A stretch of DNA of 8,050 nt from a virus. Lineage: Duplodnaviria > Heunggongvirae > Uroviricota > Caudoviricetes. The stretch covers positions 1-8,050 of the IMG/VR virus record IMGVR_UViG_2695420855_000011; one strand, 5' to 3'. Below, piece after piece: positions 350-1,774 of this stretch. Within the stretch, counting starts at the first letter, position 1. Every line of letters begins with the position of its first letter. Both the position numbers and the translations under genes were made by a program. The notes under the pieces were generated by a model. The model did no database searches, was not told the DNA's origin, and saw only the letters and a list, made by a program, of their open reading frames with translations.

Positions 350-567
350 AACCCCCCCTCCCCATTTTCACAATCAGCAACAAGAATATTTTTAGCGTCA
401 TTCAGCGACCGCGTGGCGGTGTATCGGATACATTCCAGGGCGAACAATGTGTATTCTTCCCGTTCTTCCTTTTGTGCAAGCCCTGCTGTGCATTCAATAT
501 CAATAAGCGCATGCATCAGCGTAGTGAGCGCGGCGGCTGCTGCGTCCGGTGTGGTTTTATTGCACAT
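322..567 (-). CDS. Hypothetical 81-aa protein, translationally coupled to the Icd-like gene
   Basis: ATG at 567 is preceded by CAGGAGG with a 6-nt spacer. The start overlaps the stop of the Icd-like ORF (minus strand ...CCATGTGCAATAA). No family recognised. Confidence 0.5.
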   Translation of the reverse strand: MCNKTTPDAAAAALTTLMHALIDIECTAGLAQKEEREEYTLFALECIRYTATRSLNDAKNILVADCENGEGGLCVMIVLIP

Positions 568-1117
568 GGCACACCTCCTGACGAATACGGGCGGCGAATA
601 CAGCAACACAACCGGACGGGCAACGGCTACGTGCTTCGCGTTCCGTCCAGGCGGTTACGTGGATGATTTGATGTTCTGACGCGCCAAAGATGATAAAGCG
701 CCAGAGAAAGGCGGTTTGAGAATGTACAAGGGTAGGGATAGTAGCCATGTTGGCAGCCTCCTCAGTGTGGTTAAGATAACCGCCACCGGAAACGCCAATT
801 TCGCTGGTGGCGGACTGTACAGGGTTGGCGTAACCGGACACTGAAGAAACCGGCGCGGATTGCTCCGCCCCCGTACAGCCCACCATTGATAAGGTGTGAC
901 TATGCGGCACAAAAAAACACGCGGGGCGCGTGTTATGCGCTTCAGTTTTGCCCAGGACGCCAATCCCGGCACCCGTTTTATGAGGTGCGCGGGAATCATA
1001 GCTATTTTCGACACTGGCGATCAACTGGTTTTTTTCTCCGATATTCAGGGCCAGAAAACGCCACACAAAGGCCGTTTGTGTGTGTACAAGGTGTGGTATA
1101 TGATTTACGGCAACCAT
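557..1117 (-). CDS. Tandem (two-domain) Icd-like small protein, 186 aa as one frame; the second domain (557..748) has its own ATG and strong SD
   Basis: ATG at 1117 is preceded by AGGAG with a 5-nt spacer. Two paralogous segments share the pattern hydrophobic-H-x-Q-T-A-F-x-W-R-F (MVAVNHIPHLVHTQTAFVWRF... and MATIPTLVHSQTAFLWRF...). This resembles proteins annotated as host cell division inhibitor Icd-like in enterobacterial prophages, recalled from memory and not verified. There is no stop between the two copies. Confidence 0.45.
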   Translation of the reverse strand: MVAVNHIPHLVHTQTAFVWRFLALNIGEKNQLIASVENSYDSRAPHKTGAGIGVLGKTEAHNTRPACFFVPHSHTLSMVGCTGAEQSAPVSSVSGYANPVQSATSEIGVSGGGYLNHTEEAANMATIPTLVHSQTAFLWRFIIFGASEHQIIHVTAWTEREARSRCPSGCVAVFAARIRQEVCHVQ

Positions 1118-1146
1118 AACGGCTCCTAGTTTACGTTGTTGGTTAG

Positions 1147-1180
1147 ACGCCCCGTATGTGTTCCCAGCACTGCGGGGCGT
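1147..1180. promoter_or_regulatory. Hairpin (8-bp GC-rich stem ACGCCCCG / CGGGGCGT, 18-nt loop) in the leader region of the Icd-like operon
   Basis: Inverted repeat at 1147-1154 and 1173-1180, followed on the plus strand by a T-rich tract 1181-1190. It lies about 30 nt upstream of the Icd-like start on the minus strand. Confidence 0.3.
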
Positions 1181-1205
1181 TGATTTTTGTGTAATGGCAA
1201 GTACA

Positions 1206-1247
1206 ATGGTAATTACCATGTAGGTATAGTAATGAAGGGTAATTACC
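1206..1247. promoter_or_regulatory. Two palindromic operator-like sites sharing the core GGTAATTACC, between the divergent arc-like and icd-like genes
   Basis: A perfect 14-bp palindrome ATGGTAATTACCAT at 1206-1219 and a 10-bp palindrome GGTAATTACC at 1238-1247, the latter directly abutting the ATG of the Arc-like gene. A TATAGT -10-like hexamer lies between them at 1225-1230. Confidence 0.45.
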
Positions 1248-1421
1248 ATGTCAACACCATTAGAAAAACGTTCGCCTCCATACCAAATGCGATTACCGGA
1301 AGACTTCAGAGCGCAGCTAGAAGAAGCAGCTAAGGCCGATGGCGACACATCTTTAGCCACTTGGATTAAACGCGTTCTCCGCAAAGAATTACAGCAACGC
1401 GGCATAGAACCCAAAGGATAA
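1248..1421 (+). CDS. Arc/MetJ-type ribbon-helix-helix DNA-binding protein, 57 aa
   Basis: Own translation: MSTPLEKRSPPYQMRLPEDFRAQLEEAAKADGDTSLATWIKRVLRKELQQRGIEPKG. It shows the RHH pattern (beta-strand YQMRLP, helix A, G-D-T-S turn, helix B). It is below the length cutoff of the supplied ORF track and sits right after the palindromic operators. Confidence 0.75.
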   Translation: MSTPLEKRSPPYQMRLPEDFRAQLEEAAKADGDTSLATWIKRVLRKELQQRGIEPKG

Positions 1422-1478
1422 AAACTATCAGCGCCGTGGTGTGAGGTATTACGGCGCATTGCTATGCAGGACAACACA

Positions 1479-1652
1479 ATGACCGATAAAGAATTGACCA
1501 AAACATTATCACCGGCACGGAAAAGACGGCGCAGAAAGATAGAGCATGAATCAGAAAGATTCGCGCCATGTGCTTTTGCCCTTGAGCAATTCCTTAAAGA
1601 GTACAGGGAAAAGCGCTCATTGCAGGTATGGCAACGAACTGAACCAGACTGA
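1479..1652 (+). CDS. Small basic hypothetical protein, 57 aa, downstream of the Arc-like gene
   Basis: ATG at 1479 with AGGA 7 nt upstream. Sequence MTDKELTKTLSPARKRRRRKIEHESERF... It is followed by an intrinsic terminator. No family recognised; the alternative start at 1464 has a poorly spaced SD. Confidence 0.35.
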   Translation: MTDKELTKTLSPARKRRRRKIEHESERFAPCAFALEQFLKEYREKRSLQVWQRTEPD

Positions 1653-1747
1653 TTGCATTGCCCACCAGCCTGATAGCGGCTATCATCCCCGTGCTTATGT
1701 TTGGGATCACATACACATAAGGCGCAGCGGGTTAATTGTTCAGAAAG

Positions 1748-1774
1748 GCGGCTCCATATCGGGGCCGCTTTTTT
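1748..1774 (+). terminator. Rho-independent terminator for the arc-like operon, possibly bidirectional with alpA
   Basis: Stem GCGGCTCC / GGGGCCGC (8 bp with one G-U pair), 5-nt loop, then TTTTTT at 1769-1774. It sits between the convergent ORF ends at 1652 (+) and 1801 (-). Confidence 0.55.

Follow-up and report, generated by a model that had tools for sequence, protein, structure and literature searches.

A putative layered immunity region with an Arc-like repressor and P4-type RNA elements in a probable phage satellite of Escherichia coli

Genes and RNA elements at the locus

In the window (the whole 8,050-nt stretch of DNA that was analysed), a rightward unit of two small genes, arc-like and orf62, diverges from a leftward ORF of 186 codons (Table 1). 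The sequence-only reading had described an arc-like RHH gene with two palindromes, one of them adjoining its ATG, and a divergent Icd-like gene, and all of these were found again. The window contains exactly two copies of the palindrome core GGTAATTACC, at 1208–1217 and 1238–1247.

Table 1 Features of the control region, with predicted promoters, operators and RNAs.
Feature	Position	Strand	Details
Eta-like ORF, 186 aa	557–1117	-	SD AGGAG 1128–1124; no internal stop
C4 targets and nested Icd/Kil-like ORF, 63 aa	557–798	-	ATG 748, stop 557
C4 / P4 CI-type antisense RNA	803–890	-	Rfam RF01695, 77.6 bits vs gathering score 45, full length
isrK / P4 seqA-like leader RNA	912–988	-	Rfam RF01394, 66 bits vs gathering score 50
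Predicted internal promoter, PLE-like	995–1024	-	TTGATC, 18 nt, TATGAT; start near 988
Candidate promoter of antisense RNA	1076–1104	+	TTGTGT, 17 nt, TATGAT (1099–1104); weak -35, 8/12 overall
Candidate ~77-nt cis-antisense RNA	1111–1190 (about 1111–1188)	+	Fold, covariation
Predicted promoter Parc (weak)	1180–1207	+	TTGATT, 16 nt, TACAAT; start near 1214; faces P_L
Predicted operator O1, ATGGTAATTACCAT	1206–1219		Overlaps Parc -10/+1 and about +1 to +13 of P_L
Predicted leftward sigma-70 promoter P_L	1226–1254	-	10/12 consensus matches
Predicted operator O2, GGTAATTACC	1238–1247		Adjoins arc ATG; within P_L spacer
Arc-like RHH gene (putative repressor)	1248–1421	+	57 aa; unannotated in RefSeq copies of the island
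orf62, second gene of rightward unit	1464–1652	+	62 aa, basic; ORF
Intrinsic terminator closing arc-orf62 unit	1742–1774	+	Convergent with alpA (2007–1801)

The 57-aa protein has a beta-alpha-alpha fold of ~45 residues, as in the RHH (Arc/MetJ/CopG) superfamily, and matched PHROG 228 (“Arc-like repressor”) with an E-value of 1.5e-6. Of the two HMM similarities that had been predicted, the one to Arc stayed below the gathering score (PF03869, 14.3 vs 20.4 bits, E = 0.038), and the Icd-like one was found, with 57–60 bits vs 25 for NF033153 in the nested ORF. PF03869 was matched at E ≤ 1 by 13 of the 35 members of the protein’s family, at best with 2.5e-4. By hhalign, the family aligned in register with P22 Arc, placing Q11, Q13 and R15 of the beta-strand on Arc Q9, N11 and R13, and likewise with the YlcI/YnfO allele described below. 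Both matches were weak, too weak to assign family membership with either protein. A PDB sequence-profile search with the family alignment gave spurious matches only, to designed helical repeats. The Ser-2 codon was always TCA in the arc-like genes of related regions. The fold and the PHROG match point to an Arc-like RHH protein, which probably acts as a repressor. The product of orf62 belongs to PHROG 21027, of unknown function (E = 1.6e-15).

On the minus strand, the sequence-only reading had seen a tandem Icd-like operon. Instead, there is a single ORF of the P4 eta/kil type, spanning an isrK/seqA-like and a C4/CI-like RNA gene, both of which that reading had missed. The ORF is made up of an Icd-like N-terminal fragment, the translated isrK/C4 region (“Ash”) and the nested Icd/Kil-like ORF; the Pfam family “Ash” thus consists for the most part of conserved RNA genes in translated form. 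PHROG 29966 matched the ORF at full length (E = 6e-110), and the P4 “cI”/eta-kil ORF shared 32% identity with it (E = 5e-8). The continuous frame is kept in E. coli FORC_041 and in Pasteurella testudinis (Pasteurellaceae).

The PLE-like promoter is predicted to start transcription at position 1 of the isrK match. The leader carries the targets a1 (UUGGCGU, 963–957) and b1 (ACUGAAG, 946–940), complementary to a' (831–825) and b' (846–839) of the C4-type RNA, and an intrinsic terminator at 934–916. The separate c4-a1b1 model reached 21 bits only, vs 46.7. A further pair of targets, a2 (798–792) and b2 (766–760), precedes the nested ORF, with b2 overlapping its SD, GAGGAGG. As in P4, the short ORF lies in frame within a longer one whose start codon precedes the internal promoter. 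Downstream of icd, a P1-type ant was not found; this place is taken by small hypothetical proteins, DUF4222 and a RepA helicase. The Icd/C4 part of the region is already known.

Operators, facing promoters and a candidate antisense RNA

In 43 distinct related upstream regions, both palindromes kept their position. The spacing between O1 and O2 was 30–31 bp in 28 of 32 regions, and nearly all related loci had O2 adjoining the ATG. The outer bases of both sites co-varied with the N-terminal arm of the protein: the arm S-P-Q-Y-Q-M was accompanied by GGTnnnnACC-type sites in 24 of 26 distinct regions, and the arm K-T-D/N-Q-Y-Q by TGTAATTACA-type sites in 9 of 11, with GGT..ACC in none of these 11. 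This covariation and the fixed positions suggest that the palindromes are binding sites of the RHH protein. The slot can also hold another allele, YlcI/YnfO, which is accompanied by different repeats. It was located in Nissle 1917 and ATCC 25922; CFT073, which carries the prototype EcCICFT073, was not among the matches listed for it. Scanning viral contigs with the 14-mer operator gave at least 120 matches. Seven were further copies of the cassette and all others were chance matches without the gene, so that the scan was uninformative for trans targets in helper phages.

The promoters are defined as matches to the consensus. P_L combines a -35 TTGACA (1254–1249), which is the complement of arc codons 1–3, with a 17-nt spacer and a -10 TACTAT (1231–1226), giving a predicted start near 1219. 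Its geometry was fixed, with at least 9 of 12 consensus positions in 36 of the 43 distinct related regions and mostly 10–11, and it is predicted to be the strong, near-consensus promoter of the island’s main operon. On the other strand, most related loci had a Parc-type -10 (TAnAAT), with its end 41–42 nt ahead of the ATG.

Between Parc and the leftward start codon we found a conserved motif that may encode a cis-antisense RNA. Its 5' hairpin presents the anti-SD CUCCU in the loop and is followed by an invariant UGGUyAGA; the 3' part is an intrinsic terminator (stem 1146–1181 plus a U-run). The RNA would be complementary to the SD (1128–1124) and the AUG (1117–1115) of the leftward ORF. The predicted fold has -33.6 kcal/mol (z = -4.2) and 24 pairs, of which 91.5% were paired among relatives, compared with 33–49% in slid controls. 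Compensatory changes support 14 of the 24 pairs, and many G-U pairs are valid on the plus strand only. The model of this motif, R1, had 45 matches in 46 sources, 44 of them directly upstream of an arc-like match. The TATGAT of the candidate promoter lies within codons 5–7 of the leftward ORF. The conserved hairpins suggest that the RNA is produced, and R1 is a candidate new sRNA family. We also considered the EHEC sRNA Esr41 (RF02676, on SpLE1), and rejected it, the window having no RF02676 match at E ≤ 1.

The island and its proposed layered control

The presence of int and alpA at one end, a co-oriented replication module, few packaging or capsid genes, a size of about 8–12 kb and a tRNA or other fixed attachment site were taken as the marks of a PICI. 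The gene content of the relatives agrees with a Gram-negative PICI-type element. In an intact relative, that of E. coli O26:H11 11368, tRNA-Pro is followed by int, an alpA-type HTH gene, the arc/Icd region, DUF4222, RepA helicase, terS and capsid; an O157 relative lies beside roxA. The replication and packaging genes make up the operon downstream of the leftward ORF. The gene order of the window was found in no complete E. coli genome. This copy is rearranged and truncated downstream, and may therefore not be functional.

The cassette and its operators are conserved across Enterobacterales, Pasteurellales, Aeromonadales and Orbales, including EHEC O26 and O157 islands and one capsid-forming PICI of Pasteurella. 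The view of a compact immunity-type region with an Arc-like repressor and an Icd-like gene was borne out in its core, and the divergent gene pair recurs in many genera. What it had overlooked is that the predicted promoters face each other and that a conserved candidate antisense RNA lies upstream of arc. RefSeq lacks the cassette; in its place PGAP annotates an “Icd-like” pseudogene, on the wrong strand. In the literature, we found no description of the repressor-operator-antisense cassette. [quoted passage not shown]

We consider it probable that this locus controls a Gram-negative PICI-type satellite of E. coli and provides its immunity, its elements acting together as a layered switch. In the proposed first layer, RHH dimers would sit on O1 and O2, on one face of the helix. 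With O2 in the P_L spacer and O1 over the P_L start, binding would silence the main operon; because O1 overlaps the Parc -10, the protein would also limit its own synthesis. P_L and Parc overlap head-on, so a polymerase at one should exclude a polymerase at the other. As a second layer, the ~77-nt plus-strand RNA would begin opposite the leftward start codon and stop at the terminator that directly precedes Parc. By pairing with the ribosome site of the leftward operon's first ORF, it should block translation of leaky P_L transcripts. In the third layer, a constitutive internal promoter would supply the isrK/seqA-like leader and the C4/CI-like RNA, the latter causing early termination by pairing to a1/b1 as well as to a2/b2, which lies at the ribosome site of Icd/Kil. 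In P4, translation overrides RNA-mediated termination (PMC10111431). Transcripts from P_L would likewise be read as one 186-aa ORF through the C4 target sites and could thereby evade the RNA immunity and open the genes for replication and packaging. Both this override and the repression of P_L are our inference. The coupling of the repressor cassette to the C4/isrK layer is proposed from P4; many loci have the cassette without C4/isrK, and the layers are therefore separable. That the known master regulator, AlpA, is an activator counts against the layered-switch reading, in which AlpA or a helper phage would have to relieve the RHH protein.

The RHH protein might instead only regulate itself, as is common among small RHH proteins, or act in trans on a helper phage or the host, leaving the leftward operon to AlpA and RNA immunity alone. 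In E. coli PICIs, activation by AlpA has been demonstrated, with no report of a repressor (PMC6092414), and the apparent P_L could be a by-product of the conserved arc start codons. The -10 of P_L, however, sits in otherwise diverging intergenic DNA, 17–18 nt from TTGACA in 36 of 43 regions. O2 lies within the spacer of P_L and O1 at its start site, and the operator scan gave, other cassette copies aside, chance matches only. We therefore regard pure autoregulation or trans action as unlikely. That the hairpin at 1146–1190 is only an insulating or bidirectional terminator before Parc, with no discrete antisense RNA, we judge somewhat doubtful. The poor -35 of the antisense promoter speaks for it, as does the Rfam search of the window, which returned no family for the hairpin. 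Against it stand the second covarying hairpin 5' of the terminator, with the anti-SD in its loop, and a TAnnnT that, in 28 of 30 loci, precedes the complement of the leftward ATG by exactly 10 nt, regardless of the protein encoded; nor is there a plus-strand gene upstream in need of a terminator.

Two further explanations concern the arc-like gene itself. Homologues are named “HicB” in some sources and many structural neighbours of the protein are RHH antitoxins, but a toxin gene is lacking as a conserved neighbour: across 60 loci there was no conserved neighbour on the same strand, and orf62 lies beside the arc-like gene in E. coli only. The elements conserved alongside arc are the operators, the RNA motif and the operon diverging from it, which makes a toxin-antitoxin pair very improbable. 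Alternatively, arc and orf62 could be spurious and the true gene an eta-like minus-strand ORF of 409 aa (1786–557), coupled to alpA as vis is to eta in P4. Its open frame begins 15 nt past the alpA stop, where PGAP annotates the “Icd-like” pseudogene. Yet the arc-like protein is 60–98% identical over 93 clusters, at fixed length. Substitutions in relatives fit the arc codons, position 2 being the most conserved in the arc frame and not in the antisense frame, and in related loci a good SD precedes the leftward gene, whose start lies about 131 bp away from arc. We rejected the 409-aa ORF as a real gene on the basis of this substitution pattern and of the starts in relatives, and consider it hardly credible; the antisense frame stays open because it shares third positions with arc.

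Returning to the layered switch, the repressor cassette looks like a master-repressor layer not described for Gram-negative islands of this kind, sitting exactly where a global PICI repressor would be expected. A broader proposal, which we put forward tentatively and with more doubt than confidence, is that many Gram-negative PICIs and capsid-forming PICIs have as master repressor an interchangeable RHH cassette (Arc-like or YlcI/YnfO alleles, each with its own operators), with a strong promoter of the main operon facing it and a conserved, hitherto uncatalogued cis-antisense sRNA against the ribosome site of the first gene. Induction of the island would come about when a helper phage or AlpA overcomes the cassette, and allelic operators would define satellite immunity groups. 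The cassette gives a testable model for satellite silence and for the exchange of immunity specificity, and adds a candidate new sRNA family.

Comparison with known immunity systems

The closest relative of the module is the immunity region of phage P4, with its CI RNA and nested eta/kil. An isrK/seqA-like leader, a C4/CI RNA and a Kil/Icd-like ORF nested in frame are homologous and in the same order in both, with an alpA/vis homologue upstream. P4, in contrast, lacks the R1 RNA motif, and no gene on the opposite strand separates its vis from eta. The upstream promoter of P4, PLL, is of the late type, with delta/Ogr as activators, whereas that of the island is near-consensus sigma-70, overlapped by the predicted RHH operators.

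The likeness to immI of P1, suggested by the sequence-only reading, was confirmed by the C4-type RNA (RF01695, 77.6 bits), the upstream target (RF01394, 66 bits) and the Icd-like gene: the a'/b' loops, a1/b1 upstream and a2/b2 on the Icd-like ribosome site are shared. Unlike P1, the island has no antirepressor gene and is followed by replication genes, and an RHH repressor and a candidate antisense RNA are added.

The likeness to immI of P22 held at the functional level only. Shared are a small Arc-type RHH repressor with overlapping, competing promoters, its action here being our inference, and a short antisense RNA against the ribosome site of the silenced gene, in the island a candidate only. 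In P22, arc and ant are co-transcribed, with mnt divergent; in the window there were no mnt or ant homologues, and arc is not co-transcribed with an antirepressor. Further, the island arc diverges from the gene it would control, whereas P22 arc precedes it, and the sequence relation to P22 Arc is weak (Pfam below threshold). P22 immI has one operator of 21 bp, the island two palindromes of 10–14 bp, 30 bp apart.

SaPIs and Gram-positive PICIs have a master repressor, Stl/Rpr, with str divergent from it. In the island, too, the putative repressor gene lies beside int and points away from the satellite's main operon, but its product is unrelated in fold and size. Also unlike those elements, the island has int and alpA in the orientation of the main operon, with the repressor gene alone reversed. 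In coliphages 186 and P2, the lytic and lysogenic promoters face each other, a few to tens of bp apart, with a repressor site between them. The predicted P_L and Parc of the island are arranged in the same way, although its putative repressor is RHH and not HTH. With their predicted starts ~5 bp apart, occlusion would be expected here rather than collision.

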